Below are positions 3,425-58,261 of a stretch of 64,000 nt of DNA, one piece after another (positions within the stretch are counted from its first letter, which is position 1; each line of letters starts with the position of its first letter). The notes under the pieces are model-generated. The model saw nothing but the letters and a program-made list of their open reading frames with translations. It was not told the DNA's origin and searched no databases. The DNA comes from a virus. The position numbers and the translations under genes are program-made. The stretch spans positions 6,442 to 70,441 of IMG/VR virus record IMGVR_UViG_3300037512_001384; one strand, written 5' to 3'.

Positions 3425-4258
3425 ATGAAAGATTCATTTGTTTTTCATAAAGACTGGTACTTAGCCTTAAAAGGGTTAGACGTTCAAGACAAAGTTGAGG
3501 TCTATGAAGCTATAATGAGCAAAATATTTGATGGTGTAGATAAGAAACTTTCGCCTGTTGCACAGATGGCAATGAATTTTATTTCGCCACAAATTGAAAG
3601 GGATGTTGAACGTTATAATTCCATTTGTGAGCAACGCAAACTATTTGGTAGTAAGGGCGGTATAGCAAAAGCTACCAAAAGCTACCAAAAGGTAGCAAAA
3701 GGTAGCAAAAGCAAGCAAAAGGTGGCAAGTGTAGCTGATAATGATAATAATATATCATCTTCTACTAACGTAGAATCTGATAATGATATTATAGATATAG
3801 AAGTAAAAGATAAATCTTTTCCTTCTAAGAAAAAAAATAAATTATTTATACCGCCTACATTAAACGAAGTAGAGGCGTATGTAAAAGAAAAAGGCTATCA
3901 TTTCAGCGCCAAGGCATTCTTTGACTATTACGAAGCGGATGACTGGCATTACGGCAAAGGCAGTAATAGAACAAAGATATCGAACTGGAAGCGCTGTTGT
4001 GCCACATGGGAGGAGCGGCGTACTACAAGTAATAATATACCTCGTGAACCCGCATCGTTGTTTGATAACCATACTCCCGAACCGGAAGACGAACAGACTT
4101 TATTACAGAAAGCATACGAAGAACTGAACGACACCCAGGAGGCTGAGATATACGGAATGGTCCCCTATGAGTTTCACATGCTGAATGAGAACGGCAAGAA
4201 ATATTGGCGCGAAGTTTACAAGGAAAAGATGCTTGATTGGATCAAGAGCAACAGATGA
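3425..4258 (+). CDS. putative replication initiator / replisome organizer
   Basis: The N-terminal domain (FHKDWY..RKLFGSKGG) and the W-rich C-terminal block (FFDYYEADDWHYGKG..ISNWKRCCATWEERR) resemble phage replisome-organizer proteins. The central linker is encoded by iteron-like repeats plus an AT-rich tract. Confidence 0.45.
   Translation: MKDSFVFHKDWYLALKGLDVQDKVEVYEAIMSKIFDGVDKKLSPVAQMAMNFISPQIERDVERYNSICEQRKLFGSKGGIAKATKSYQKVAKGSKSKQKVASVADNDNNISSSTNVESDNDIIDIEVKDKSFPSKKKNKLFIPPTLNEVEAYVKEKGYHFSAKAFFDYYEADDWHYGKGSNRTKISNWKRCCATWEERRTTSNNIPREPASLFDNHTPEPEDEQTLLQKAYEELNDTQEAEIYGMVPYEFHMLNENGKKYWREVYKEKMLDWIKSNR
3661..3730. repeat. seven phased 10-bp units each ending AAAA (iteron-like array inside the organizer gene)
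   Basis: tatagcaaaa gctaccaaaa gctaccaaaa ggtagcaaaa ggtagcaaaa gcaagcaaaa ggtggcaagt. GCTACC and GGTAGC are inverted relative to each other. Confidence 0.85.
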
Positions 4259-6150
4259 GCGACAATATTCTTTATGTAGAGGATTTCAGACACGTCTTAG
4301 GCAGCAGGTCATCAGGTAACATAAAAACCTTCTGTCCTTTCTGCCATGAGAATCGTGGAAACAAGAGGGATAAATCCCTTTCGATAAACTGCGCGACCCT
4401 GGCATATAACTGCCATTATTGCGGTGCGAGCGGTTATCTGAAATCCCGGCATGAGGAAATGATGCGGAGAATAGACAGGGAAACAAGACAGATGTCCAAG
4501 ACTTATCGCAAACCCTCGGTCAAGCCCAACCTTCAACCTAAGCTCAATGCGGACATGGTTGAGTATTTCAAAGGGCGCGGCATCAGCGAGAAGACACTTC
4601 TTGAGGCGAAGGTCACAAAGGAGAATTTCTTTTTCCCGCAAGACAATTGCAAGCGCGGATGTATCGCTTTCAACTACTATGTTGATGACGAGCATATCAA
4701 CACCAAATATCGCACAAGGGACAAGCATTTCGCATTCATTGCCGGTGCCAAGGTAGTCCCCTATAACATAGACAGCATAAGAGAGAGCGCATTCAAGAAG
4801 GGTGAAAAGAAAATCTGCATCATCACTGAAGGTGAAGCGGATACTCTCACTTATATCGAATGCGGCTATAAGCATGTCATATCCATGCCGTCCGGTGCTA
4901 ACACCAATCTGGAATGGATGGATGACTTCACCGAATCCCACTTTGATAAACTTGAACTGATTTATGTATCGACAGACAGTGACAAGAAGGGTGTTGAAGC
5001 CAAGAATGAGATAGTACGAAGGTTTGGAGCTGAAGTATGTAAGATAGTTGAGTATCCGGAAGACTGCAAGGATATAAACGAGGTTCTTGTCAAATATGGA
5101 CCGGAGAAGGTAAAGGAATGCTTCGAGGGTGCTGCGGATATTAGAATCCAAGGTGTCGAGGAACTTGTTGACATAGAGTCAGACCTTGACAACCTGTTTA
5201 CTTCGGGACTTCAAAAGGGAGTAACCCTGGGATTGGAGGATATGGATAAACTTCTGTCCTTCAATACCGGAATGGTGACGGTCGTTACAGGAATCCCTTC
5301 GCACGGCAAAACCCAATGGTTGAATTTCGCTCTGATCAGACTCAATATCCTTCACTCATGGAAGGTGGCGTTCTTCTCTCCTGAGTTCTATCCTGTAGCG
5401 CTGCATATATCCCAAATCATAGAGACGCTTGGAGGTAAAAGGTTCTCATCCCAGAACTATACGCCTCAGACTTACGGCATCCTGAAGGAGTATGTCAACA
5501 AGAATTTCTTTTGGGTGGATCCTGATGACACGGATATAAGCTCAGTCTTGGACAGAGCCAAGTTCCTCATCCGCAAGAGAGGTATCAAGGCGTTTGTGAT
5601 TGACCCTTTCAATTCGCTGACAGACGAGAAGCGAACGATATACAAGCAGGATGAATATATTTCGGACTTCCTGCAGAAGATACGATGGTTCGCCAGGAAG
5701 TATGACGTTGCAATGTTCATCGTCATGCATCCCACCAAACAATACAAGCAGGATAACGGCTTATATCCGGTCTGTGACCTGTACTCATGTAAGGGTGCAT
5801 CTGAGATATACGACAAGGCTGATATCGGCATCACCGTATGGAGAAACGAGCAGGGTAATTACGGTGAGGTGCATGTGACCAAGATGAAGTTCCGTCACAT
5901 GGGACAGAAAGGACATGACACTTTCGTCTATAACTTCAATAACGCCCGGTTCGTTGAGATTCCCACTATGGACGCGAAGCGTGTGGCTCCCGACATGGAT
6001 AAAGTGAAGTGGGATAACAGCAATTATGTAATTGAGAATATCAAGACGCAGCAGAATCAGCAGGAATTGGATTTTGGAGCGGAGCAGCCGGAAACACCAC
6101 ATAATGAAAAACCCTTTGATGCGCCGATAGACGAAGATATCCCGTTCTGA
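4255..6150 (+). CDS. bifunctional primase-helicase (zinc finger + TOPRIM + DnaB/RecA-like helicase, T7 gp4-like)
   Basis: CPFC..CHYC zinc motif, TOPRIM ICIITEGEADTL and DSDKKG, Walker A GIPSHGKT. Start taken at the ATGA overlap with the preceding stop. Ends DEDIPF. Confidence 0.85.
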   Translation: MSDNILYVEDFRHVLGSRSSGNIKTFCPFCHENRGNKRDKSLSINCATLAYNCHYCGASGYLKSRHEEMMRRIDRETRQMSKTYRKPSVKPNLQPKLNADMVEYFKGRGISEKTLLEAKVTKENFFFPQDNCKRGCIAFNYYVDDEHINTKYRTRDKHFAFIAGAKVVPYNIDSIRESAFKKGEKKICIITEGEADTLTYIECGYKHVISMPSGANTNLEWMDDFTESHFDKLELIYVSTDSDKKGVEAKNEIVRRFGAEVCKIVEYPEDCKDINEVLVKYGPEKVKECFEGAADIRIQGVEELVDIESDLDNLFTSGLQKGVTLGLEDMDKLLSFNTGMVTVVTGIPSHGKTQWLNFALIRLNILHSWKVAFFSPEFYPVALHISQIIETLGGKRFSSQNYTPQTYGILKEYVNKNFFWVDPDDTDISSVLDRAKFLIRKRGIKAFVIDPFNSLTDEKRTIYKQDEYISDFLQKIRWFARKYDVAMFIVMHPTKQYKQDNGLYPVCDLYSCKGASEIYDKADIGITVWRNEQGNYGEVHVTKMKFRHMGQKGHDTFVYNFNNARFVEIPTMDAKRVAPDMDKVKWDNSNYVIENIKTQQNQQELDFGAEQPETPHNEKPFDAPIDEDIPF

Positions 6151-9292: not shown

Positions 9293-9363
9293 GGTCGTAT
9301 GGCGTAATGGTAGCGCAACAGACTTTGGTTCTGTGTGTCCCGGTTCGATTCCAGGTACGACTA
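9293..9363 (+). tRNA. tRNA-Gln (anticodon UUG)
   Basis: Manual cloverleaf: acceptor GGTCGTA/TACGACT (G1-U72), anticodon stem ACAGA/TCTGT, loop CTTTGGT, T arm CCCGG-TTCGATT-CCAGG (one C-A mismatch). No encoded CCA. Confidence 0.8.
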
Positions 9364-9374
9364 CAAATTATTTC

Positions 9375-13554: not shown

Positions 13555-14334
13555 ATGGGTACAAAAATAGAGTGGACCAACAAGGTATGGAATCCCGTAT
13601 CGGGCTGCACTAAGGTCAGTGAGGCTTGCCAGAACTGTTATGCTGAAGTGATGGCAAGACGTCTGAGCGGAATGCCTGGCAGCAAGGAGAAATACAAGGA
13701 TGGATTCAAGGTGACGATTCACCCGGAAAGCCTCTATGAGCCTTACAAGTGGAAGAAACCATGCATGGTCTTCGTTTGCTCTATGGGCGACCTGTTCCAT
13801 GATGATGTTCCTATCCAGTTCATTGACGAGGTGATGAACGTGATCAGCGAGAATCCGCAGCACACGTTCCAAATTCTCACCAAGCGGGCTGGAGCGATGT
13901 ATTCATATTTTCAACATGAGGATGTTCCGAAGAACGCATGGCTCGGTGTCACCTGCGAGAGTGCCAAACATTATGACAGGGTGAGTCTTCTCCGTGATAT
14001 TAACCGTGTGAGTCTTCTCACCGATTTCCATAGCAAGACTGTCAAGTTCCTGTCATGCGAGCCTCTGTTGGGTGACATGGCGGATATAAACCTTGACGGT
14101 ATTGATTGGGTGATTACAGGAGGCGAAAGCGGTTCGCGAGCCCGAAGGACACCGATTGAATGGTTTCGGAATCTTCGTGACAGGTGTGTCGAGACCGGCA
14201 CGCCTTTCTTTTTCAAGCAATGGGGTGCGTTCGGCCCGGATGGTATCAAACGCAGCAAATATCTGAACGGTTCTGTACTGGACGGTCAGCAGTGGAAACA
14301 GATGCCACTTATAAAGCAAGACGATAATGATTGA
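13555..14334 (+). CDS. phage Gp37/Gp68 family protein (DUF5131)
   Basis: IEWTNKVWNPVSGCTKVSEACQNCYAEVMARRL N-terminal signature and GGESG block. Contains an in-frame 27-bp duplication (RVSLLRDIN/RVSLLTDFH). Confidence 0.7.
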   Translation: MGTKIEWTNKVWNPVSGCTKVSEACQNCYAEVMARRLSGMPGSKEKYKDGFKVTIHPESLYEPYKWKKPCMVFVCSMGDLFHDDVPIQFIDEVMNVISENPQHTFQILTKRAGAMYSYFQHEDVPKNAWLGVTCESAKHYDRVSLLRDINRVSLLTDFHSKTVKFLSCEPLLGDMADINLDGIDWVITGGESGSRARRTPIEWFRNLRDRCVETGTPFFFKQWGAFGPDGIKRSKYLNGSVLDGQQWKQMPLIKQDDND

Positions 14335-16063
14335 CGAATTAGACAAGCAACTGCAGTATATCAAGACTTGCCCTCACTATACGGTCTTTGCCATAGACCT
14401 TTTCTGTGGCGCGGGCGGTGAAACGACAGGTATTGAACTGGCTATGGTGGATGGTAAGAAATGCGCCAAGGTCATAGCCTGCGTCAACCATGATCCGAAC
14501 GCTATTGCATCTCATGCTGCGAATCACCAATCCGTTCTGCATTATATCGAAGATATACGTACCCTCAACTTAGGCGGATTGGAGCAGTTGACGGAAGCTG
14601 TCCGGACTTTTCATCCAGGTTCATATATCCTGTTGCACGCTTCACTTGAATGTACAAACTTCTCCAAGGCCAAGGGTGGTCAACCACGTGACGCAGACTC
14701 CCGAACTCTGGCTGAGCATCTATTCCGATACATTGAGGCTATCAGACCGGATTATATCCAGATAGAGAATGTGGAAGAGTTTATGTGCTGGGGAGAGCTC
14801 GACAAGAACGGCAAGCCTTTGAGTAAAGACCGGGGTAGCAGTTATGTTCGTTGGGTGAACAACGTCAAACATTATGGGTATGATTTTGACTACAGGTTGC
14901 TTAACGCAGCTGATTTTGGCGCATACACAAGCCGTAAGCGCTTTTTCGGTCTTTTCGCCCGTCATGGATTACCGCTTGTCTTCCCGCATCAGACCTATGC
15001 GAAGAACGGTGACGAAGGTGGGCTTTTCCATCAGTACCGGAAATGGAAACCTGTACGTGAGGTGTTAGACCTGCAGGATGAAGGGGAAAGCATCTTTGGT
15101 AGAAAGAAACCGTTATGTGAAGCTACATTGGAGCGCATCTATGCAGGATTGGTGAAGTTTGTGGCAGGAGGTAAGCAGAAATGTGACGCCTGGATCCTAA
15201 AGTACAACTCCATGAATAAAGATAGAAGCCATAATGCACCCTCTATCGACGAGCCCTGTCCTACTGTTGCTGTGCAAAACAGATTAGGTTTATGCAAGTG
15301 TAATTTCCTGAGTCTGTATTATGGTGGCGCAGAGCATAACCAATCTATTGAAGAGCCAGCGGGTACTGTGACAACCAAAGACCATCATGCTTTCCTTTCG
15401 GTTCATTATGGACACGGTTGTAATAGAGATATTGACAAGCCTTCACCTACTGTGACATGCCAGGACAGAATTGAGCTTATTTCAAGCCAGTTCTTTGCCA
15501 ATGAGTATAGTGGCGGAGGACAGCTTTCTGATATAGAGAAACCTTCACCCGCTATACTTACCAAACCGAAACAGCATTTAGTCACGGCTAAACGCTGGCT
15601 GGCGAATACCAACTTCAAGAATGTGGGTAGCAGCATAGATTCTCCAGCACCGGTAGTGACAGCCAACTATAAGTACCACTATCTGATGAATCCGCAGTTT
15701 GCATCTGCAGGAGGTTCCATAGACAAGCCCTGTTTCACATTGATAGCCCGGATGGACAAGATGCCTCCGTATCTGATAAGCACAGAGAGCGGAGAAGTCG
15801 GAATCGCTGTATATGATTCGGATTCATCAATGACGTGCAAGGTCAAAGAGTTCATGGCTGCATACGGTATAGTGGATATCAAGATGCGTATGCTGAATGT
15901 GGGTGAACTTAAACGTATCATGGGCTTCCCTGATGATTATGTGCTTATCGGCACTCAGGCAGAGCAGAAGAAATATATAGGCAATGCCGTGGAGGTAAAT
16001 ATGTCCCGTATGTTATGTGAAGCACTTGCTACTAAATTAAACCTCACAAGACAAGCAATATGA
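14327..16063 (+). CDS. DNA (cytosine-5) methyltransferase with an expanded, repetitive target-recognition region
   Basis: Motif I DLFCGAGG, catalytic-region variant ECTNFS, IENVEEF, RKRFFG, GNAVEV. Six I(D/E)xPxPT-like repeats between motifs VIII and IX. Confidence 0.85.
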   Translation: MIDELDKQLQYIKTCPHYTVFAIDLFCGAGGETTGIELAMVDGKKCAKVIACVNHDPNAIASHAANHQSVLHYIEDIRTLNLGGLEQLTEAVRTFHPGSYILLHASLECTNFSKAKGGQPRDADSRTLAEHLFRYIEAIRPDYIQIENVEEFMCWGELDKNGKPLSKDRGSSYVRWVNNVKHYGYDFDYRLLNAADFGAYTSRKRFFGLFARHGLPLVFPHQTYAKNGDEGGLFHQYRKWKPVREVLDLQDEGESIFGRKKPLCEATLERIYAGLVKFVAGGKQKCDAWILKYNSMNKDRSHNAPSIDEPCPTVAVQNRLGLCKCNFLSLYYGGAEHNQSIEEPAGTVTTKDHHAFLSVHYGHGCNRDIDKPSPTVTCQDRIELISSQFFANEYSGGGQLSDIEKPSPAILTKPKQHLVTAKRWLANTNFKNVGSSIDSPAPVVTANYKYHYLMNPQFASAGGSIDKPCFTLIARMDKMPPYLISTESGEVGIAVYDSDSSMTCKVKEFMAAYGIVDIKMRMLNVGELKRIMGFPDDYVLIGTQAEQKKYIGNAVEVNMSRMLCEALATKLNLTRQAI

Positions 16064-20211: not shown

Positions 20212-20736
20212 ATGAAACGTGATGTGTGGAAAGACGTAAAAGGCTATAAGGGTCTTTATAAGATAAACCGTGAAGGTGTTGTCATCAACAAACGAGGCAA
20301 GGTGGTAGGGACAGAGTTGTCGCAACGAGGTTACGTGCGCGTCAGACTGTATAAGAACAACGTCAAGAAGAATCATAAGGTTCACCGCTTGGTAGCCCAG
20401 GCTTTCATCCCCAACCCCAGACGTCTGTCACAGATAGACCATATCAATGGTGATAAGACGGACAACAGAGTCCAGAACCTTCGATGGATGGACAACAGAG
20501 AGAACAACAACGCATTCAAGAGTGAACATCTGAACAAGCAGCCGGTGGTAATCATCGGCTGTTTTGGTGAAATACTGAGATACTTCTCTTCATTACGCGA
20601 AGCAGCATCTGCCATAGGTGTCAGCAGGCATGGTATTTCAGCCGCCTGCCGTGGATTACAGAAGACATCAGGCGGTTATTCATGGCGTTTCGTGACTGAA
20701 GCTGAATTTGCTTTGTTCAACAGGAAGGCTGTATGA
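20212..20736 (+). CDS. HNH homing endonuclease (NUMOD4 + HNH)
   Basis: WKDVKGYKGLYKINREG, then HRLVAQAF..IDHINGDKTDNRVQNLRW..NN. Confidence 0.85.
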   Translation: MKRDVWKDVKGYKGLYKINREGVVINKRGKVVGTELSQRGYVRVRLYKNNVKKNHKVHRLVAQAFIPNPRRLSQIDHINGDKTDNRVQNLRWMDNRENNNAFKSEHLNKQPVVIIGCFGEILRYFSSLREAASAIGVSRHGISAACRGLQKTSGGYSWRFVTEAEFALFNRKAV

Positions 20737-20770
20737 CATATACGGCCCGGAGAAAAACAATATCATTCTA

Positions 20771-21745
20771 ATGTATCGAAAAAAGAAACCGGCAGGTTTT
20801 GATGAACGTCTTCAGTGGTCTATCAATTTGTTGAAGAAAGCAGAAAAACTCGCTTTGCAATATGATCCTGATGACGGATTCTATTTAGCCTTCTCAGCAG
20901 GCAAGGATTCCCAAGCATTATATCACATCGCCAAACTTGCAGGTGTCAAGTTTCAGGCTCACATGAACTTTACGAGTATTGACCCTCCAGAGGTTATTCG
21001 CTTCTGTCGCGAACATTATCCTGATGTCATAACTCATGCACCCGAGGACAGCATCTACAATATTGCCGTAAACGGGAAATATCTGCTGCCTTCACGTATC
21101 ATTAGATGGTGCTGTGCCATTCTTAAAGAGACTGGAGGTGCCGGTACGGTCTGTCTTACAGGTGTACGCAGACAGGAAAGCATCAGACGCTCCAAACGTA
21201 ACAGCGTTGAAGTTAGCAACAGCTCCTTCTCCGGGGACCTCGATGCCTTCGAGACGTGGAGAAAAGAGAAGATTGCCAAGAAGATTCAGCATCTCAACCA
21301 GGACCAATTCAGTGAACAAGACGAGGAACAAATCAGATGTATCGGCGGCAAGGATAAAATCATTGTCAATCCGATAATAGACTGGTCTGAGTCTGATGTC
21401 TGGTATTTTCTCAACGAAGTTGTGAAAGTGCCTCACTGCTCGCTATATGACAGAGGATATAAACGTATCGGATGTATCTGCTGTCCTATGGCAAATTATA
21501 AGCAGAAACTCATCGAATTGGCGGATTACCCCCATGTCAAGCGCAACTGGATAAATGCCATCAAGCGGATACGCGAGCAGGGTATCGCAAAGAATATCCT
21601 GACAGAGAACTATTTCGGCAATGGTACGGAAGACGAGATATGTGAGAACATCTTCCAATGGTGGATCAGCGGGAAATCCTATGACGAATGGTATGCTGAG
21701 ACATTCCTTCAGCAAAGGATTGATTTTGGAGAGGAACAACAATAG
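20771..21745 (+). CDS. PAPS-reductase-family (PP-loop ATPase) protein
   Basis: PP-loop FSAGKDS, C-terminal IGCICCP cysteine cluster. ORF trimmed to MYRKKKP. Confidence 0.8.
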   Translation: MYRKKKPAGFDERLQWSINLLKKAEKLALQYDPDDGFYLAFSAGKDSQALYHIAKLAGVKFQAHMNFTSIDPPEVIRFCREHYPDVITHAPEDSIYNIAVNGKYLLPSRIIRWCCAILKETGGAGTVCLTGVRRQESIRRSKRNSVEVSNSSFSGDLDAFETWRKEKIAKKIQHLNQDQFSEQDEEQIRCIGGKDKIIVNPIIDWSESDVWYFLNEVVKVPHCSLYDRGYKRIGCICCPMANYKQKLIELADYPHVKRNWINAIKRIREQGIAKNILTENYFGNGTEDEICENIFQWWISGKSYDEWYAETFLQQRIDFGEEQQ

Positions 21746-22486: not shown

Positions 22487-23245
22487 ATGCTTCATGGGGA
22501 TTGCCTTGAACTTATGCGGGATATTCCGGATAAGAGTATCGACATGATTCTGAGTGATCCGCCTTATGGAACGCTAAACAAGAGCAACCCGGATGCGCAA
22601 TGGGATAAGGAAGTTGACCTTAAGGCATTATGGAGGCAATACAAGCGCATCATCAAGCCCAACGGTGTCATTCTTCTGTTCGGTCAAGGTGTCTTTGGAG
22701 CCAAGCTGATTATGAGTAACCCGAAATGGTTCAGATATGACTTCGTTTGGGATAAGGTCAGGAAATCCAATTTCCTTAACTGTAAGAAGATGCCGATGCG
22801 TCAGCATGAGCAGATATTCGTGTTCTACGGCAAGCCGCCTCTGTATAACCCTCAGATGGTCCGGTGCAAGGAGTCTCAGAAGAACCACAGCAGAGGCACG
22901 ACAGGACGAGAGCAGAAGACCTCCTGTTACGGCAAATACAACGTGACGGAAACCATAGATACCGATTACAAGTATCCCGGAACTATCGTTCGGTTTCCCA
23001 AAGGGCACAGTAAGGAAGACTGGAAGCACGGGACAACCAAACCGGTCAATCTCTTGCGTTATCTCATCAGGACATATTCCAAAGAGGGTGATGTCATCCT
23101 TGACAATTTTGCAGGATCCGGCAATACACTGATTGCCGCCATCAAAGAGAAGAGAGACTGGATAGGTATGGAGATATCGGATAAGTTCTATGCTTTGGCT
23201 CAGCAACGTATAAATGACGAACTAAGAGAACCAACTTTATTCTGA
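22487..23245 (+). CDS. N6-adenine-type DNA methyltransferase (DPPY)
   Basis: DMILSDPPYGT, YDFVWDK, LDNFAGSGNTLIAA. Confidence 0.85.
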   Translation: MLHGDCLELMRDIPDKSIDMILSDPPYGTLNKSNPDAQWDKEVDLKALWRQYKRIIKPNGVILLFGQGVFGAKLIMSNPKWFRYDFVWDKVRKSNFLNCKKMPMRQHEQIFVFYGKPPLYNPQMVRCKESQKNHSRGTTGREQKTSCYGKYNVTETIDTDYKYPGTIVRFPKGHSKEDWKHGTTKPVNLLRYLIRTYSKEGDVILDNFAGSGNTLIAAIKEKRDWIGMEISDKFYALAQQRINDELREPTLF

Positions 23246-27696: not shown

Positions 27697-29073
27697 TTAC
27701 AGGCGCAGTGTACCCGCTCTTGCCGCCTCACAGCGTCTCAGCACCTCCTTACGGTCACGTATGAGTATCCTGGCTCTCATATCCATACCTTCGCCCGTGG
27801 GCTTATCCAGGACACCTATCGCAACCATCGTGAGGAAGTCCTCGATTGCCATACGGCGTGTAAGAAGGAAGGGGAACATACCGAAGTTACGTGGCGTCAA
27901 CTCTGTCCTGCCTTGTGACTCCTGCAGGAAGAGGCATTCGGGTTGTCCCTTGATAGTAACGGTGACACATGGCGCATCCTCCTGTCCCGGGATGTCAAGC
28001 ACGGAACCGGTAAATGTACCTCTGCAGACAAGGTTGAGCAGTATAGCATCCTCGATGTACTCCGTATCTGCATATCCGCATTGTACGCGCACGTCATCAA
28101 TGCCGTCTGAGTAGAGCATATCACCCTTACCCATCAGGTCCTCGGCACCGGTATGGTCGAGGATGACACGCGAATCAATACCCGATGCGACGCGGAACGC
28201 GATACGTACCGGGAAGTTCGCCTTGATGTTTCCTGTCACGATGGTCGCCGACGGACGTTGCGTGGCTATGATCATGTGGATACCGACGGCACGGGCTTTC
28301 TGTGCGATACGGCATATCATACGCTCCATATCCTTCCCGGCTGTCATAATAAGGTCGGCATACTCGTCTATGACCACGATGCAGTAACGCATGTAGTCTT
28401 CACCGTTGAGCTTGTCATTATACTCTTTGATGTTACGTACTCCTTTCTGCGAGAGAAGGGTGTAACGGTACTCCATGAGGTTAATGACACGCTGCAGGAT
28501 AGCGACAGCATCCTCTGTGGTCGTGGCTATGTCATCGGCGAGATACTTGTGCCAGAGAGGAGCGTAGATGTTGAGCTCAACCTGTTTGGGGTCGATGAGC
28601 ACCAACTGCATCTCTTCCGGTGTGCGCTTGCTCATCAGTGAGAGCAGCAGCATGTTCAGGCATACCGACTTACCTTGACCGGTCGCACCGGCAATAAGCA
28701 GGTGCGGCATCTGTGTGAGGTCACGGATGAAGAGTTCTCCCTGTACCGTCTTGCCTATGGCGCATGGAAGTGCCATCCTGCAGGACTCGTAATCGACATG
28801 ATGCAGAACGCTGTCCATGTGTACTATCTGACGTTGGAAGTTGGGAACCTCAATGCCAATCGTACCGCCTGCGAGCGGTCCCATGATGCGTACCGACTCC
28901 GTACCGACCGCCAAGGCAAACTCATCAGCGAGTCTGCGTACACGTGTCATATTCACACCCATATCCGGTCTGAACTCATACAGGGTGACGCTGGGTCCTT
29001 TCGTGACTCTCCAGCTCAGCGGTTCAATCTTATGAACCCTGAGCACCTGTTCTAACTTGTAAGTGTAATCCAT
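27697..29073 (-). CDS. FtsK/SpoIIIE-family DNA translocase-like ATPase
   Basis: Walker A AGATGQGKS, Walker B VVIDEYADL, ATQRPSATIVTGNIKANFP..GAEDLMGKGDML. Start set at MDYTYK by the cassette. Confidence 0.85.
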   Translation of the reverse strand: MDYTYKLEQVLRVHKIEPLSWRVTKGPSVTLYEFRPDMGVNMTRVRRLADEFALAVGTESVRIMGPLAGGTIGIEVPNFQRQIVHMDSVLHHVDYESCRMALPCAIGKTVQGELFIRDLTQMPHLLIAGATGQGKSVCLNMLLLSLMSKRTPEEMQLVLIDPKQVELNIYAPLWHKYLADDIATTTEDAVAILQRVINLMEYRYTLLSQKGVRNIKEYNDKLNGEDYMRYCIVVIDEYADLIMTAGKDMERMICRIAQKARAVGIHMIIATQRPSATIVTGNIKANFPVRIAFRVASGIDSRVILDHTGAEDLMGKGDMLYSDGIDDVRVQCGYADTEYIEDAILLNLVCRGTFTGSVLDIPGQEDAPCVTVTIKGQPECLFLQESQGRTELTPRNFGMFPFLLTRRMAIEDFLTMVAIGVLDKPTGEGMDMRARILIRDRKEVLRRCEAARAGTLRL

Positions 29074-29157
29074 AATGATTGTTTGAGTTATTATTGGCGG
29101 AGCAGCTGATGTCACTCAATCAGCTCCAGGACGTGGGATTTGTCCTTTGGAAAAGTG

Positions 29158-39004: not shown

Positions 39005-39997
39005 TCACGCATCGGCCCAGTAAGTCCAAGTGTGGATCTTGCTCACCCCGTAGCGGTTGAGGTAGGCGTCGAGACGTTTGCGGAACTTCTCCAGCCCGAA
39101 CTTCAGACCGTCAAGGATGAGGGCGCGTTCCTCCTTGCTCGCCTCATGGCCTTCGTTGTTGTACCACGACCTGCCGATAAGGAAATCGAGCTTGTTCTTG
39201 TAACCTGTCTCAGCGATACGCAGTGTCTCACCCTTCTCGATGCTCTCAATGGAGCGAGTGAAGGCGCTTTCGTTCTGCTGGATGAAATACTGACGGAGTT
39301 TACTCTCGTCTTTCATCAGCTCGCAATAGAACTTATAGTCCGGTCCTTCGTCATGGAAGCAGAAGCGGTTGTCTATTGACGGCTTGGTTATCAAGTAGAA
39401 ATGTCCGTCAATCTTCACCGCTCCGACACATCCCTTGCTGTAGTAGTCGCGGTCTGACTTGTCATCTTTGCACTCGGTGTCAAGAAACTCGCTGAGCCAC
39501 GTGATGAACTTCTCGTCCTTCTTGGCAGTCTTCTCGACCTTGGCGGTAATATGTGATGCTCCGCCTCCGATGAACGCCTCCACAGCCTCGCGCTTGTCGT
39601 TATTGAACAGCCAGCCCGCTCCGCAGGAGAGGAACTTGTTGAACTTCCAAGCCCCGAGTTTCTTCAGCTGCTCGCGGTAAGTGAACGTGTCACCCACAAC
39701 CGCGAAGCATTTCTCTGAATATTCTACGATTCTCAGGTCAGGCCCGTCGGTTTTCAGAGCCGCCTTGATGTCGTTGAAATCCTCCTCACCCAGCCAATCC
39801 GAACAGGAGAGGCCGTCAGGGAAATCCTCGGTGTCCTGAATCATAAACTCCGGATCGCTCTCGTTCTTGTGCAGTTCTTTGCACTTCGAGATAAACGCAT
39901 TGTAGTTCTCACAATCCGCGAGAGAAACCCATCCGCCCGCGATGCTGCCGTTGTTGTACTTACCCCAAGTACCGACATAAACTTTTGGATTACACAT
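39005..39997 (-). CDS. ArdA-like antirestriction N-terminal domain fused to a C-terminal domain of unknown function
   Basis: KVYVGTWGKYNNGSIAGGWVSL..PEFMIQDTEDFP parallels the ArdA N-terminus (VYIANLGKYNEGELVGAW..). Cassette-defined start. Confidence 0.6.
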   Translation of the reverse strand: MCNPKVYVGTWGKYNNGSIAGGWVSLADCENYNAFISKCKELHKNESDPEFMIQDTEDFPDGLSCSDWLGEEDFNDIKAALKTDGPDLRIVEYSEKCFAVVGDTFTYREQLKKLGAWKFNKFLSCGAGWLFNNDKREAVEAFIGGGASHITAKVEKTAKKDEKFITWLSEFLDTECKDDKSDRDYYSKGCVGAVKIDGHFYLITKPSIDNRFCFHDEGPDYKFYCELMKDESKLRQYFIQQNESAFTRSIESIEKGETLRIAETGYKNKLDFLIGRSWYNNEGHEASKEERALILDGLKFGLEKFRKRLDAYLNRYGVSKIHTWTYWADA

Positions 39998-43863: not shown

Positions 43864-44463
43864 AGTTGCGCGTATTTAAGGTTAAACAATATTCGTAAGC
43901 GGACCGGCAATCTTTCAGCCGTTCCGCCCTGTCCTGTGTCTTTCATCTCTCAGGCGTTTTCCAATAGATTCTAAGTTTAACCATAACTCTGAATCCCACA
44001 GCTCCGGCCTACCGGAGATTCCAGCGGAATTATTCTCAGGCGGAAAAGGGAAATAAATTCCGGTCCGCGAGGAAAGCCCAGGGATTCGCGTAACGATACG
44101 CAAATCCGCATAATCCGCTGATTAGGGATGATGTTCAACGCTGCCGTATAATCCGCGCTCCGATTACTCACTGTTTCGGCTTTCATCTTTCACTACTTGC
44201 CTATATCACTTTCAAACGGAGTGCGCCCTGATCCTGCACGCAGCGCAAAAGCACCGGTACAGGACCGCACGGGAACAGCGCCCGCTATCCGCCAGCTCTT
44301 TGCAGAACAGCCGGAAATATTCGCGTCCAATATGTCAATGTACGTTTTATTAACTTGCACCCTTCACGGAATCCAACCGCGCCCAGATAAGCAGCTCACC
44401 TGGGTTGCAAAAAGGGTATGATCCAAGCGCCCACCTGATAGGCAAATCCTTTCAGATAGGCAC

Positions 44464-44500
44464 AAAAAAGATAGGCGGCGGAAAGTATCCGCCACCTATC
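44464..44500 (-). terminator. rho-independent terminator (minus strand)
   Basis: Minus strand: GATAGGTGGCGG..CCGCCGCCTATC followed by TTTTTT. Confidence 0.75.
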
Positions 44501-44515
44501 AAACAGGGTTAAAAT

Positions 44516-45100
44516 TTAATCAACTTTGCAAACTCTTGTAAAACCAAATTTTGCCAACAGTTCAGGAGTTAAAAGACTTGCGTCTATTCCAAGACTTGCG
44601 GCCAGACTTGCGGACGCTCTTTGCAATTGCTTTTCATTTGCCTGCTTGCGTGCAGTCCGTGCAACTTCATCCCTGAATATATCGTAACTATTAAAACAAG
44701 TACGGAGGCCAGCGGCCGAAATTGTAGTTTTACGGTATGGAGTTAAACCGCTTTCCGTATTTCCTATTGTGTTTGTATCCGCTTCACTTTGAAAAGTGAT
44801 TGTAAAGTTGTTTGTTGCTTTCCTCACTTTTGCAAACACCCTCAAAAACAGATATTTTTCTGTTGCCATAAAAGGAGCGGAACGGAAAGAATCCGCAAAA
44901 CAAGCGGATAATTTATTAAGGTTTTCGGCCTCAATACTTGCGTTTTCGTTGTCAATACTTGCAAGTAGTTTGCTAATTGTGGTTTTACTTGCGTTTGCTT
45001 TTCTCAATTCCTTAACTGAAATACTTGTTACCAGTGTTTCAAGTTCAACGGTTGAAATACCTGAATAAAGGTAATCAACAAGATTTTTGTTTACTTGCAT
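44516..45100 (-). CDS. hypothetical protein (first gene of the leftward block)
   Basis: Cassette-defined start. Has its own terminator. Confidence 0.55.
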   Translation of the reverse strand: MQVNKNLVDYLYSGISTVELETLVTSISVKELRKANASKTTISKLLASIDNENASIEAENLNKLSACFADSFRSAPFMATEKYLFLRVFAKVRKATNNFTITFQSEADTNTIGNTESGLTPYRKTTISAAGLRTCFNSYDIFRDEVARTARKQANEKQLQRASASLAASLGIDASLLTPELLAKFGFTRVCKVD

Positions 45101-45763
45101 AGTTGTAATATTTAAGAGTTAATAAAATAGTGTCAAAGTGCGCATATCGGAAACACCTTTCCGACACTATAAAATTACAAAAATAATCCGATATAATGCC
45201 AATATTTGTATATTTAACTTATGTTTAATTGATTGATATATAGTAAGTTATAAAGAAAGATTATACAATATTGTAGTATATATACAGGTTATTATTGTAT
45301 ATATACATAGATAGTTAATTATATAATAACTTAAATATATAGATATTTAACGGAAAAATACTTACAAATTGATCCCAGAGTTTCGGCAATAGGTGCAAAC
45401 CGATGAACACACAACCAACACGGCAATAAAGCGGAAAAGTTGCAAGGAGCGACAAACCCCACAACGGACCGACAACGCGACCGCGAGCGGATACAATACA
45501 ATTATAATGTATTTGTTTTGCAGGAAAAACCGCGCGAATACCCCACCCAGAGAAGGCTACCCCCGACCCCCTAAATACGTTTGTATTGCGTGGGGGTCAG
45601 CCCCCGCCGAGATTTTCAATTTTTCATTTTTCGTTTTTACTTTTCGTATGCGGAACATGTTTCTGTGTATCTCAATCGGTGTTTCTGGTCTATATATATC
45701 AGTCCTGATGCCGTGTATCCTTGTCTGCGCGTTGATTATGGTCTGATACATGGGTATCTATGG

Positions 45764-45845
45764 AAAAAGGGTCAAAAAAGCCTGAAAAAGCCCCAAAATA
45801 CCCTGAAAATAGGGGTCAAAAAGAGGTGCTTTTCCTCAAAAAAGG
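45764..45845. repeat. helically phased A-tracts (predicted intrinsic bend)
   Basis: A-runs start at 45764, 45774, 45785, 45795, 45806, 45818 and 45838, spaced 10-12 bp. GGGTCAAAAAG occurs twice. Confidence 0.75.
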
Positions 45846-45865
45846 CTGTTTTTGGCGTATGAATG

Positions 45866-45982
45866 TACCAAAAATGGAATTTGATGTACCAAAATAGAGA
45901 TTACCAAAAAAAAACGTAAGTTATTGAAATATAGGGTAGATATTTGTCATGCAATGAACCAAATGAACCAAATGTACCAAAT
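45866..45982 (+). repeat. six (G/T)(T/A)ACCAAA(A/T) repeats upstream of the D5-like helicase gene
   Basis: gtaccaaaaa 45866, gtaccaaaat 45887, ttaccaaaaa 45901, gaaccaaat 45956, gaaccaaat 45965, gtaccaaat 45974. Confidence 0.8.
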
Positions 45983-46025
45983 TTCGATACCCAGGTATTG
46001 GTTTGTTTAGTTATTGTTTTTATAT

Positions 46026-47483
46026 ATGGGTAAAGGTACACAAAACAACAATTTCACGCTTATTGAAGACCTTAGTAAGCTGATTTACAACTCGCTGAAC
46101 AAAGCTCCGTTGAAGGAGTCCTATAAGCTGTATTCATCGGGTGACAGGGTATATGTCTATCAGGAGGTCATCCTTGATGCCTGCAGCAAGTGTTTCCGGT
46201 CTTACATGGGTGATGTATATTACTTCGACGGCAGGATATGGTGTCCTCTGGCTGATATTGTGCTTGAGACTGCGTTGAGCAAGGCGTTGGTGCAGGGAGG
46301 AGCGCGTAAGTCGGATATCGTGAATGCCAGGAGCAAGATTCTGTATTCGGCACGTGGCGGTGCGTCGATGTCACCGTTGGAGTTGCGTGCGTCGGTCATC
46401 GGATTCCGTAACGGCGTATGGGATTTCACTGACATAGACAACCCGGTCTATCACTCTTTTGCCGAGCGTATGCCTGTGGTGCGGATACTCCCTTACGACT
46501 ATGACCCTGATGCGGGCTGTCCGAAGTGGCAGGCGTTCCTGCAGTCCATCTTGCCGAAGGGTGAGATAATGAAGCTCCAGAAGTACCTCGGTCTCGGCTG
46601 TGCTGACCGTAAGAGCATGACGCATAAGATTGAAGAGACGCTGTGGCTCATCGGGTCGGGTGCCAACGGCAAGTCCACCATCTTCGACGTGGTACGCGGG
46701 GTGTACGGTGCGGATAACATCAGCTATGTGGGTCTCGATACGCTGCTTAGCGGCTCGTCGGACGTGCGTGCGCGGTTCATCGGGAGCATCGTGGGTAAGA
46801 TCTTCAACTACTGCTCGGAGATACAGGCGGATGACATATCACGTTACGCCGATACCTTCAAGTCCCTCTGTTCGGGTGAGCCGCAGACCGTGAGAAGGTT
46901 GGGTCAGAACCCCGAGACCACCTTCGACATACCGTTCCTTGTGTTCAACATGAACCAGAAGCCCACGAACCGGCGTATGGACCAGGCTCTCGTGCGCCGT
47001 CTGCTCTTCATACCTTTCAAGACCACCGTCTCTGCCGCCGACATGAACCGTGAGCTCTCGTCGGAGCTGCTGAAGGAGCTGCCGGGTATCCGCAACTGGA
47101 TGATAGAGGGCTATAAGATGCTCATACGTGACGGCTATCAGTTCAACACCACCAAAGCCGCCGATGATGAGATGACCGACTACATGCTGGAGAACGGTCA
47201 GACGGTGCAGGTGTTCCTACAGAAGAAGGGCTACTCATGTAACAGGCGCACGGGACACTGGGAGGACCGTATCCAGTGGGTTCCTGCGTCCGCTCTCTAT
47301 GAGGACTATGTGTCGTTCTGCGAGAAGTGGCTGCAGGATCCTGTCAAGCAGCGTGCTTTCGGCAGTGAGATGGCACGTCTCGGATGGCATGAGACGGGAG
47401 GGAACCGCAAACGTACCGGCACGGGTTACGCCTACGGCATCTTCTGCGAGAAGGATATCGATTACGCAAAAAATAACATCTGA
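46026..47483 (+). CDS. P4-alpha / poxvirus D5-type primase C-terminal domain with SF3 helicase
   Basis: YDPDAGCPKWQAFLQSIL..LQKYLG..WLIGSGANGKSTIFDV (Walker A). ORF trimmed to MGKGTQ. Confidence 0.8.
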   Translation: MGKGTQNNNFTLIEDLSKLIYNSLNKAPLKESYKLYSSGDRVYVYQEVILDACSKCFRSYMGDVYYFDGRIWCPLADIVLETALSKALVQGGARKSDIVNARSKILYSARGGASMSPLELRASVIGFRNGVWDFTDIDNPVYHSFAERMPVVRILPYDYDPDAGCPKWQAFLQSILPKGEIMKLQKYLGLGCADRKSMTHKIEETLWLIGSGANGKSTIFDVVRGVYGADNISYVGLDTLLSGSSDVRARFIGSIVGKIFNYCSEIQADDISRYADTFKSLCSGEPQTVRRLGQNPETTFDIPFLVFNMNQKPTNRRMDQALVRRLLFIPFKTTVSAADMNRELSSELLKELPGIRNWMIEGYKMLIRDGYQFNTTKAADDEMTDYMLENGQTVQVFLQKKGYSCNRRTGHWEDRIQWVPASALYEDYVSFCEKWLQDPVKQRAFGSEMARLGWHETGGNRKRTGTGYAYGIFCEKDIDYAKNNI

Positions 47484-49351: not shown

Positions 49352-49825
49352 ATGGATGAAGAGAAAAGACAAAAGATAGAGTCGTTCGTCAGTGGTCTGA
49401 CGGAGGCTGAGGCACGGGAGCAGCTGAAACTGGCTTACGAGCAGATGGAGTTATGCAATGAACTCCTGCACGGTCATAAGGCAGAACCTGTAGAGATGAA
49501 GGACAACGGTCTGTCATCTGACCTGGAGTTGTTCTACAGCTGTAAGAAGATACGTATCGAGCTCAACGGCTATACCGGCGAGAAATTCGGCGAGGGACAG
49601 AACTATCCCGTCTTCGAGGTCGGCGAGGAGGTCTTCTACATGCGTGACAACAGGATTCGCATGTCTGCGGTCAAGGAGGTGGACGCCAGTGACATAGAGA
49701 ACGTCATGTACACCCTGGAAACAGGTGAGGTCATGGCGGAGGATGACCTCTATGACGGCATCGACGAGCTGACGGAAAGCCTCGTGTTTAATCTCTATGA
49801 GGATCTGAGACAGGAGGGTGACTGA
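49352..49825 (+). CDS. hypothetical protein
   Basis: ORF-track ORF. Confidence 0.45.
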   Translation: MDEEKRQKIESFVSGLTEAEAREQLKLAYEQMELCNELLHGHKAEPVEMKDNGLSSDLELFYSCKKIRIELNGYTGEKFGEGQNYPVFEVGEEVFYMRDNRIRMSAVKEVDASDIENVMYTLETGEVMAEDDLYDGIDELTESLVFNLYEDLRQEGD

Positions 49826-49826
49826 T

Positions 49827-58107: not shown

Positions 58108-58261
58108 ATTTCTTATACATTTTTGACAAAGATATTTCAGAACAAGTGTCACATACGGTGTATTTCATTGGTAAAATGAAAGATTACCAAAATAAAAGCG
58201 CTTAGGAAAACACCAATCACTATAATTTGGCGAAAAATCTTTACAAATTATAGCAATTGGT

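Follow-up and report, generated by a model that had tools for sequence, protein, structure and literature searches.

The methyltransferase gene and its surroundings

The window, that is the whole stretch of viral DNA analysed here (64,000 nucleotides), contains an open reading frame of 578 aa whose predicted product is a SAM-dependent C5-cytosine DNA methyltransferase, orphan and phage-borne. The gene and its features outside the repeats are as follows.

14327–16063, plus strand: predicted C5-cytosine DNA methyltransferase gene, 578 aa, orphan (stand-alone), in a phage-like region (ORF list, Pfam, PDB, AF2/Foldseek)
14402–14419, plus strand: motif I, FCGAGG, aa 26–31, SAM binding; invariant or nearly so in alignments A1, A2 and A4
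14648–14665, plus strand: motif IV, ECTNFS, aa 108–113, with the catalytic Cys109 and a Glu replacing the usual Pro
14765–14773, plus strand: motif VI, ENV, aa 147–149; E147, N148 and V149 invariant in 141 sequences
14933–14950, plus strand: motif VIII, RKRFFG, aa 203–208; R203 and R205 invariant
14981–15217, plus strand: framework of the small (target-recognition) domain, aa 219–297, preceding the repeats (AF2, conservation)
15785–15868, plus strand: strand-helix connector, aa 487–514, joining the units to motif IX (AF2)
15869–16036, plus strand: motifs IX–X, aa 515–570, ELKRIMGFPDDY ... IGNAVEV, Asn553 retained (M.HhaI/M.HaeIII alignment)

Motifs I, IV, VI, VIII, IX and X are thus all present in the canonical order of C5-methyltransferases. 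A Pfam search matched PF00145 over aa 23–218 (E = 3.7e-29, score 102.6 for a cutoff of 22), and the TIGR00675 score was 80.7, under the cutoff of 100.65. Sequence searches of the PDB retrieved M.HhaI, M.HaeIII and CmoX, the best match being SpCmoX (8YF3, E = 1.7e-8); PDB C5-methyltransferases matched aa 515–573 (motifs IX–X), and this part aligns with residues 266–324 of M.HhaI and 272–326 of M.HaeIII. Across 141 aligned sequences C109 is invariant, as are G552, N553 and V555 of motif X (GNAVEV, aa 552–557). An AF2 model built on this diverse alignment (mean pLDDT 78.8) resembles M.HhaI and M.HaeIII, with a Foldseek E of ~1e-14 and a target-normalised TM of 0.66–0.69 (3UBT, 2UYC and others). 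The preliminary description had pointed out that the catalytic loop reads ECTNFS in place of PCQxFS with the Cys kept, which is correct; it is no oddity of this enzyme, since LECTNFS is the commonest form of motif IV in the family (56 of 150 representatives), with others reading xDCxHF(S/T).

The surroundings of the gene are phage-like and encode another methylase (N6/N4) as well as a homolog of ArdA, a context that fits an anti-restriction role for the predicted enzyme. Other modification-related genes lie nearby, encoding a DUF5131 protein, a PAPS-reductase-like protein and a glycosyltransferase. The DUF5131 gene is immediately upstream, with an overlap of 8 nt, and was considered as a functional partner; this was rejected because just 2 of the 57 related loci have a DUF5131 gene at a distance of 4 kb or less. 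Among the window neighbours tested, none adjoins homologs of the methyltransferase in more than 7 of these 57 loci.

Six repeated units between motifs VIII and IX

The region between motifs VIII and IX spans 306 aa and contains six units of about 30 aa (aa 298–486, nt 15218–15784), all sharing the core S-I-(D/E)-x-P-x-x-T-(V/I/L). They are listed with their scores by an HMM whose input units all came from distant relatives (at most ~55% identical).

15218–15319, plus strand: unit 1, type D, aa 298–331, ...APSIDEPCPTVAVQNRLGLCKCNFL; 25.8 bits
15320–15403, plus strand: unit 2, type B, aa 332–359, ...NQSIEEPAGTVTTKDHHAFLSV; 31.6 bits
15404–15505, plus strand: unit 3, type E, aa 360–393, ...NRDIDKPSPTVTCQDRIELISSQFF; 24.4 bits
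15506–15607, plus strand: unit 4, type F, aa 394–427, ...LSDIEKPSPAILTKPKQHLVTAKRW; 28.5 bits
15608–15691, plus strand: unit 5, type C, aa 428–455, NFKNVGSSIDSPAPVVTANYKYHYLMN; 22.2 bits
15692–15784, plus strand: unit 6, type A, aa 456–486, FASAGGSIDKPCFTLIARMDKMPPYLIS, near-universal terminal unit; 23.5 bits

The six units are real repeats. All of them scored 22–32 bits with this HMM, the best of 1,000 shuffles reaching 2.8. The motif I[DE]xP was observed six times for 0.17 expected and the 9-residue unit pattern six times for 0.0007 expected (20,000 shuffles), and the anchored identity between units was 21% (range 10–32%) compared to 5.6% in control segment pairs (99th percentile 16%). The strings, the shuffles and the HMM therefore confirm the earlier claim of six repeats of some 30 aa between motifs VIII and IX. 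The quoted strings start at aa 306, 340, 368, 402, 436 and 464 (nt 15242–15742), with a spacing of 34/28/34/34/28 aa, and the interval first given for the array, 15245–15766, was right within 3 nt at its 5' end. The duplication of the units must be old, since no tandem repeat was found at the DNA level in the unit region.

Selection, conservation and structure prediction

The units are under strong purifying selection. Their dN/dS is 0.014–0.025 (~0.02), with 5–7 nonsynonymous vs ~62 synonymous changes, as measured against the closer relatives P0001 and P0002; dS was saturated against P0003, and the 57 genomic loci were not used because synonymous sites saturate at ~70% amino acid identity. 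Units 1–5 have a dN/dS of 0.016–0.025 (5–7 nonsynonymous and 50–53 synonymous changes), a constraint equal to that of the rest of the protein, and unit 6 has 0 nonsynonymous vs 10–12 synonymous changes. Among proteins of the same architecture, conservation is 58–88% in the units vs 77% in the catalytic domain and 76% in the framework (aa 219–297); no segment of the protein is better conserved than unit 6, with a mean identity of 88%. The hydrophobic positions of the units are conserved throughout the family alignments. P0002 is a mosaic: its array is nearly identical (dN 0.016) and its catalytic domain divergent (dN 0.21).

The preliminary description had proposed structure prediction as a check on whether each repeat folds as a target-recognition domain (TRD), and the confidence of the model differs along the array. 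The framework is predicted with high confidence (aa 221–280, pLDDT 83–96; helices 265–279 and 283–287), as is the connector (strand 482–488, helix 501–512, pLDDT 82–88). Unit 6 is placed confidently (pLDDT 84–92) and modelled as packed on the catalytic core, and units 4–5 reach a pLDDT of 53–74, with strands at 399–402 and 416–420. Units 1–3 stay below 50 even with 141 sequences, so that the model does not support a TRD fold for each unit. A shallow family alignment had left all the repeats without a confident model; since the deeper alignment raised confidence for units 4–6 only, units 1–3 gain nothing from the fold search.

A widespread family with turnover of whole units

The repeat region is matched by 1,899 protein clusters (50% identity), and 387 phage records carry relatives of the whole protein (tblastn). 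No near-identical annotated phage was retrieved by megablast, and no Bacillus phage appears in the top-10 organism names or in the 40 matches listed of the 387 tblastn matches. In the literature searched we found neither a paper on this family nor methylation data for any of its members. Five distant relatives checked, from Porphyromonas phage028a, Tenacibaculum Gundel_1, E. coli Eeyore, Pseudomonas F116 and Roseburia Jekyll, have 3–5 units each.

Across the family, proteins carry 2–10 units of over 25 types, and 211 full-length proteins display 107 architectures. The types depend on a clustering threshold of 0.62, which is arbitrary, and the 150 representatives were those with the highest scores, which biases the sample to many-unit proteins. 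Sequence comparison indicates that enzymes which are otherwise almost identical gain and lose entire units, as in SPR, phi3T and rho11s. The architecture differs in 18% of pairs with 95–100% identical catalytic domains, and examples reach 98–99.5% identity, such as P0004 (KBBEFCA) and P0040 (KBELFA), whose catalytic domains are 99.5% identical. A single cassette separates three further pairs with nearly the same core: P0020 (DBEFCA) and P0021 (DBELFCA), P0024 (DBEFCA) and P0086 (DBEFA), and P0015 (DBBEFCA) and P0046 (DBEFCA). Alignment A1 displays clean cassette indels: the type B unit is doubled or missing in close relatives, and type C (unit 5) is cleanly missing as a cassette in many close homologs. 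In P0101, a winged-helix FtsK-gamma domain is inserted within the array.

The array is nonetheless ordered, its types having preferred positions: of 60 pairs of types that occur together, no more than 9 were seen in both orders. Among diverse relatives, an A/H-type unit is terminal in 87% and a type C unit penultimate in 56%. Within a type, the turn residues are conserved even between proteins that share just ~50% identity in their catalytic domains. Every full-length gene examined has at least three units, except L057 (447 aa, two units), so that some units may be an obligatory scaffold. A constant scaffold of three units (PK-type, C and A) was considered and rejected, as the crude regular expression behind it had misclassified unit 5 of the query and, with the cluster types, only A/H is near-universal.

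Likeness of the units to characterised target-recognition domains

That the repeats are TRD-like, as the preliminary description had it, is partly supported. The unit profile aligned by hhalign with the TL segments of M.SPRI, M.Rho11sI, M.HaeIII and M.HhaI, which were picked by eye, at 90.4% probability (E = 1.4e-6, 17 columns in register). The unit HMM matched DEPAFTVNTIDRHGV, which lies in the TRD region, in SPR, rho11s, H2 and phi3T with 8–10.9 bits, a score equalled by none of 500 shuffles (maximum 4.6), although the same HMM gave 7.4 bits on one unrelated ORF of the window. Its sole match in M.HaeIII, NEPAFTVQASGRQ (aa 232–244), lies within the TRD and was reached by 1 of 1,000 shuffles. 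Unit 3 is nearest in sequence to this HaeIII/SPR element, (D/N)EPAFTV..(D/G)R. These matches to TRD cores speak for the claim; against it, the similarity is short and weak, and M.HhaI was not matched by the unit HMM. The unit profile had no match among PDB sequences and the single units none in Pfam, since the units are too short for significance at the scale of a database.

The variable region of M.SPRI, an enzyme reported to have triple sequence specificity, contains exactly three TL-type motifs, at aa 280, 310 and 358. Their spacing of 30 and 48 aa suggests that a TRD can function with modules of ~30 aa. By the same count rho11s has four TL motifs, more than the specificities it is known to have, and the Bacillus enzymes reportedly include inactive "pseudo-TRDs."

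How the array may work

We consider it probable that this is a modular, six-unit C5-methyltransferase that methylates several short targets by the mechanism of the Bacillus-phage enzymes. The target-recognition region would be a modular array of six hairpin-like units of ~30 aa, each repeating an element that is present once per TRD in classical enzymes. Every unit would consist of a Gly/polar lead-in loop, a TL-motif strand carrying the shared core, a turn and a hydrophobic strand, the turns being polar or basic and apparently specific to the type (QNR at aa 318–320, KDHH at 351–354, QDR at 379–381, KPKQ at 413–416, NYKYH with YKYH at 448–451, and RMDK at 475–478). The last unit, of type A, would be constitutive and pack on the catalytic domain just ahead of motif IX, and the upstream units would be facultative cassettes which, singly or with a neighbour, may provide a common catalytic pocket with different surfaces for reading bases. 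One protein would thereby methylate several short target sequences, as do M.SPRI, M.Phi3TI, M.Rho11sI and M.H2I, and the DNA of progeny phages would be shielded from more than one of the Type II restriction systems found in their Bacteroidales hosts.

Multispecificity is well motivated by the TRD-like repeats, the constraint on them and the turnover of units, and methylation of several sequences is probable because relatives gain and lose units like cassettes. We infer that the enzyme has more than one methylation target, and estimate the number at two to five rather than six. One specificity per unit is doubtful, because the array is ordered, its last unit is near-universal and packed on the core, AF2 cannot place units 1–3, and all full-length genes examined but L057 have at least three units.

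The ordered array also fits a single composite domain, in which the six stacked hairpins would form one enlarged small domain that reads one target, perhaps long or degenerate, and in which gain or loss of a unit would tune a single specificity or the affinity for DNA without adding targets. The position-specific types, the near-universal terminal unit packed on the core, the minimum of three units in all full-length genes examined but one and the large TRDs of the monospecific DNMT1 and MET1, which rank near the top of the fold matches, all favour this possibility, which we regard as serious if somewhat unlikely. However, one or two whole units differ between enzymes with 98–99.5% identical catalytic domains, a difference not easily explained if a single cooperative fold reads a single site; the array moreover tolerates a foreign winged-helix domain, M.SPRI has one TL motif per known specificity at 30-aa spacing, and a long single target would presumably be of little anti-restriction use to a phage. 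The order of the array might alternatively reflect a colinear, solenoid-like reader in place of a set of alternative TRDs, with successive hairpins of ~30 aa each touching one or a few base pairs, or else a site next to them, but this is a long shot, slightly more so than the next reading. According to the latter, the C-terminal units C and A, or A alone, would be the TRD, and units 1–4 would be pseudo-TRDs or a non-specific DNA clamp serving affinity or processivity. The strong conservation of unit 6, the confinement of AF2 confidence to units 4–6, and the pseudo-TRDs reported from Bacillus-phage enzymes, with the four TL motifs of rho11s, point in this direction; we nevertheless judge it unlikely, as units 1–5 are under purifying selection equal to that on the rest of the protein and their type-specific turns are conserved between distant enzymes.

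A different chemistry, either C5-carboxymethylation of the CmoX type or the starting step of a hypermodification with the repeats serving that pathway, could be evoked by the best PDB match, by the motif IV devoid of the canonical Pro and by the DUF5131, PAPS-reductase-like and glycosyltransferase genes nearby. CmoX is defined by "SPPC" and by Arg350 in the place of Asn304 of HhaI (PMC12783734). The present enzyme has LEC109 rather than SPPC and keeps the Asn in GNAVEV, invariant as N553 in the 141 sequences, so that both defining residues are absent and the CmoX-type reading was rejected; DUF5131 is rarely close to related genes, and neither CmoA (the Cx-SAM synthase) nor an amide ligase was found by Pfam or PHROGs among the 31 window ORFs scanned. 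This chemistry is therefore highly improbable. Finally, that the repeats are fortuitous, of low complexity or a flexible linker that is no TRD would agree with the low AF2 confidence for units 1–3 and the absence of a repeat at the DNA level, but is for practical purposes ruled out by the shuffle tests, the dN/dS of ~0.02 and the hydrophobic positions conserved family-wide.

Comparison with known methyltransferases

The modular, multispecific reading relates the enzyme to M.SPRI, M.Phi3TI, M.Rho11sI, M.H2I and M.SPBetaI, likewise phage-borne orphan C5-methyltransferases with an enlarged region between motifs VIII and IX, several tandem TL-motif modules, and a constant catalytic core combined with module sets that differ between close relatives. 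Module spacing overlaps (30–48 aa in the Bacillus-phage enzymes, 28–34 aa here), and the last module before motif IX is DEPAFTVNTIDRHGV in all Bacillus-phage members and the near-universal type A/H here. The two groups differ in motif IV ((E/D)C here vs PC) and motif VIII (SRKR vs QxRxR), their modules share only short and weak similarity (8–11 bits), and modules are more numerous here (six, and up to 10 in relatives, vs 3–4). The hosts are Bacteroidales, with distant relatives in phages of Proteobacteria, Actinobacteria and Firmicutes. By analogy, the six-unit enzyme would work like SPR, phi3T and rho11s while belonging to a different clade of the superfamily, outside their protein family; their multispecificity is established, whereas ours is predicted from sequence. 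We propose that it represents a new and widespread variant of the Bacillus-phage multispecific design.

M.HaeIII (GGCC; PDB 1DCT/3UBT), a monospecific enzyme whose DNA complex is solved, has the same overall fold (Foldseek TM 0.66), but a variable region of ~100 aa vs 306 aa, a single TRD element vs six units, and a canonical PC in motif IV. M.(phi)BssHII, a multispecific C5-methyltransferase encoded by a prophage, can be likened to the present enzyme as one polypeptide with several TRDs; it is said to have five specificities, believed to be the largest number documented. SpCmoX, a phage cytosine C5-carboxymethyltransferase, shares the phage C5-methyltransferase fold, but its small TRD, which recognises GC, is without repeats. 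Non-specific or degenerate orphan methylases of phages or prophages, such as the adenine methylase M.EcoGII, have the same presumed purpose, broad protection from one orphan enzyme (PMC12707154); they reach it with a small recognition region and a relaxed specificity, as opposed to the many conserved, type-specific modules found here.

Implications for phages and their hosts

Multispecific C5-methyltransferases have been a textbook curiosity, essentially of a few Bacillus phages, and to our knowledge none has a known structure. A 2025 review still cites only the Bacillus-phage enzymes (PMC12707154). If the present reading is true, the multispecific design would be a major anti-restriction strategy of phages, given the 1,899 clusters and 387 phages concerned, and the many sequences available would help to solve how several TRDs share one catalytic pocket. 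They would also constitute a natural library of specificity cassettes of ~30 aa for methyltransferase engineering. Should the solenoid-like reader be true instead, the set of cassettes (over 25 types, 2–10 per enzyme) would be a combinatorial code programming where the one catalytic domain methylates, a natural modular DNA-targeting code on a C5-methyltransferase spread across phages of several bacterial phyla.

With the multispecific reading, one gene may explain many m5C motifs, which would change the assignment of motifs to genes in gut and rumen methylomes. Bacteroides exhibit very diverse methylation and restriction-modification repertoires, with ~1,000 methyltransferase genes borne by prophages (PMC10333322), and such enzymes would help to explain the host range of phages in Bacteroidales, whose restriction-modification repertoires are extremely diverse.

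Catalytic core

The methyltransferase gene encodes a protein of 578 aa, in which the following elements were located:
14327-16063, + strand, C5-cytosine DNA methyltransferase
aa 26-31, FCGAGG
aa 108-113, ECTNFS, containing Cys109
aa 147-149, ENV
aa 203-208, RKRFFG
aa 552-557, GNAVEV

Each of these motifs is invariant in 141 relatives. Pfam domain PF00145 covers aa 23-218 (E = 3.7e-29), aa 515-573 align with PDB sequences of the solved C5-methyltransferases M.HhaI, M.HaeIII, DNMT1 and CmoX, and the AlphaFold2 model built from a diverse alignment (mean pLDDT 78.8) matches M.HhaI and M.HaeIII in Foldseek (E ~1e-14, target-normalised TM 0.66-0.69). The enzyme is thereby assigned to the C5-cytosine DNA methyltransferases; 306 aa separate its motifs VIII and IX. 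The ECTNFS loop and its Cys, singled out in the preliminary description as a departure from the usual motif IV, are indeed present but not peculiar to this enzyme, since LECTNFS is the commonest form among 150 family representatives, other members having xDCxHF(S/T). The best PDB sequence match is 8YF3, the carboxymethyltransferase CmoX, whose hallmarks are SPPC and an Arg replacing the Asn of motif X (PMC12783734). CmoX-type chemistry was ruled out, as LEC takes the place of SPPC and Asn553 is invariant, which makes the protein an ordinary SAM methyltransferase.

Tandem units under purifying constraint

The six tandem units reported from the sequence were all recovered, their strings starting at aa 306, 340, 368, 402, 436 and 464 (intervals of 34, 28, 34, 34 and 28 aa). 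Shuffled sequences lead one to expect 0.17 occurrences of I[DE]xP and 0.0007 of a longer unit pattern; each is found six times. All six units score 22-32 bits with an HMM made solely from the units of distant relatives, for which the best of 1,000 shuffles reached 2.8 bits, and anchored identity between units is 21% versus 5.6% in control segment pairs. No DNA-level repeat was found in the array, so the duplication of the units is ancient.

The units differ from those of P0001, a homolog 98% identical, by 5 nonsynonymous and 63 synonymous changes (dN/dS 0.014), and from those of the homolog P0002 by 7 and 62 (dN/dS 0.020), unit 6 showing no nonsynonymous change in either comparison. Among 74 proteins of the same architecture, identity within units is 58-88% versus 77% for the catalytic domain, and no part of the protein is better conserved than unit 6 (88%). 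Conservation at this level marks the units as functional and refutes a mere linker.

Family extent and cassette turnover

Close homologs of the whole protein number more than 8,000, and the repeat region alone retrieved 1,899 relatives of 475-1,213 aa (representatives of 50%-identity clusters). The 57 related loci in species-representative genomes belong nearly all to Bacteroidales MAGs from rumen or gut, and whole-protein relatives occur in 387 sequenced phages, including Bacteroides phage BS-TP2 (59% identity). Distant full-length relatives in Porphyromonas phage028a, Tenacibaculum Gundel_1, E. coli Eeyore, Pseudomonas F116 and Roseburia Jekyll likewise carry 3-5 units. Units number 2-10 per protein, and protein length scales with their number.

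Clustering sorts the units into discrete types, the order here being D-B-E-F-C-A, and 107 architectures were counted in 211 full-length proteins. Alignment of close homologs shows entire cassettes that some proteins have and others cleanly lack, and architecture differs in 18% of pairs with 95-100% identical catalytic domains; for instance, the homologs P0004 (K-B-B-E-F-C-A) and P0040 (K-B-E-L-F-A) have catalytic domains 99.5% identical. P0002 (L063, 1418-3109) is a mosaic, with a catalytic domain at dN 0.21 and an array at dN 0.016 from the window protein (0.011-0.019 over framework and array), indicating that an array can also be transferred whole; the mosaic suggests that recombination took place close to the motif VIII boundary. 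Another homolog, P0101 (625 aa), is a typical member except for an FtsK-gamma winged helix (PF09397) between units 3 and 4, so that a DNA-binding module of foreign origin can be accommodated in the array. This pairing of a constant core with exchangeable modules is what characterises the SPR/phi3T/rho11s group.

Genomic neighbourhood

The window is phage-like, and the following of its genes were considered:
571-2658, + strand, FtsK/SpoIIIE-family ATPase with exonuclease-like N-terminus
4237-6150, primase/helicase
9293-9364, + strand, tRNA-Gln (anticodon TTG), among early genes
13555-14334, + strand, DUF5131 gene (phage Gp37/Gp68-like, Cys-rich N-terminus)
20708-21745, + strand, PAPS-reductase-like gene, ~4.6 kb downstream of the methylase
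22487-23245, + strand, N6_N4_Mtase DNA methylase (PF01555)
27697-29115, - strand, second FtsK/SpoIIIE-family ATPase
39005-39997, - strand, ArdA-like anti-restriction protein
46014-47483, second D5-type primase
49818-51404, + strand, glycosyltransferase (GT2/GT92-like, 528 aa), in the higher-GC part near structural genes
55360-58152, - strand, terminase large subunit (930 aa)

The upstream DUF5131 gene overlaps the methyltransferase start by 8 nt, which suggests translational coupling. A conserved pairing was rejected, since of the 57 related loci only 2 have DUF5131 at a distance of up to 4 kb; no window neighbour tested was present at more than 7 of the 57, and the methyltransferase is a stand-alone gene. 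The N6/N4 methylase and the ArdA homolog fit an anti-restriction gene set, and the phage appears to carry several such devices.

PAPS reductase near the methylase is a recurrent association: it lies immediately upstream of the related gene in E. coli phage Eeyore (L069, 1-314) and ~5 kb downstream in BS-TP2 (L001, 13204-13785). In F116 (L070), a related cytosine methylase of 687 aa sits between two annotated DNA adenine methyltransferase genes, in what looks like a three-methylase cluster. Elsewhere, a Hom_end match (PF05204, aa 283-345), N-terminal to the Terminase_6N match of the terminase, may be an intein or homing-endonuclease insertion. GC content steps from ~0.46 to ~0.53 at ~44000-46000, dipping to 0.405 at 44-46 kb; the second primase gene comes after this step, which may be where two modules or two elements meet, or the sign of a mosaic genome. 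The glycosyltransferase may act on DNA, on a virion protein or on the host surface.

Likeness to target-recognising domains

The units were compared with the Bacillus-phage enzymes of SPR (K02124), rho11s (X05242), H2 (M72412) and phi3T (KY030782), and with M.HaeIII and M.HhaI, whose sequences were checked against PDB. In each of the four multispecific enzymes the unit HMM scores 8-10.9 bits at DEPAFTVNTIDRHGV, the final variable-region element ahead of motif IX (shuffle ceiling 4.6 bits, n = 500; one unrelated window ORF reached 7.4 bits), with lower-scoring matches at SPTLTT and SPTITTN. Its sole match in M.HaeIII is NEPAFTVQASGRQ (aa 232-244), within the target-recognising domain (TRD); M.HhaI gave none, and the unit profile alone had no match in PDB or Pfam. 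The TL motif is the core strand element of characterised TRDs. Nine segments containing it were picked by eye from these reference enzymes, and profile-profile alignment (hhalign) brought the P-x-x-T-[LIV]-T core of 65 units into register with them at a probability of 90.4% (E = 1.4e-6). The units thus resemble TRD cores, through short and weak similarities. M.SPRI is described as an enzyme of "triple sequence specificity"; TL-type motifs number exactly three in its variable region, and two lie only 30 aa from each other, so that a module of ~30 aa is not too small for a TRD.

Recognition model and alternatives

We lean towards the methylation of at least two targets. One catalytic domain, with Cys109 as nucleophile and SAM as donor, would serve a string of hairpin modules, each combining a TL-type strand with a polar/basic turn particular to its type; the last module would be held fixed against the core, and the modules upstream of it would offer different surfaces for reading bases, which would let the enzyme methylate several short sequences. 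Six specificities for six units are not warranted.

A serious rival, although we judge it rather unlikely, is a single composite TRD reading one target. It draws on the ordering of the array: among 91 diverse representatives an A- or H-type unit is terminal in 87% and a C-type unit next-to-last in 56%, each type has a favoured place relative to the others, and of the 60 pairs of types that co-occur only 9 are found in both orders. It also draws on the presence of at least three units in all full-length genes examined except one (L057, 447 aa, two units). AlphaFold confidence also limits the multispecific reading: unit 6 is placed firmly on the core (pLDDT 84-92), units 4-5 moderately (53-74), and units 1-3 stay under 50. 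Given the ordered array, with A/H-type units last, and the firm placement of unit 6, the final unit is probably constitutive, and may serve either as scaffold or as a family-wide TRD comparable to the shared last element of the Bacillus-phage enzymes. That the upstream units, conserved as they are, would be inactive or clamp-like seems improbable.

Our literature search retrieved no description of this family, nor of a multi-TRD C5 enzyme outside Bacillus, and a 2025 review names only Bacillus phages for the strategy (PMC12707154). The enzyme would work like those of the Bacillus phages, yet it lies outside their protein family.
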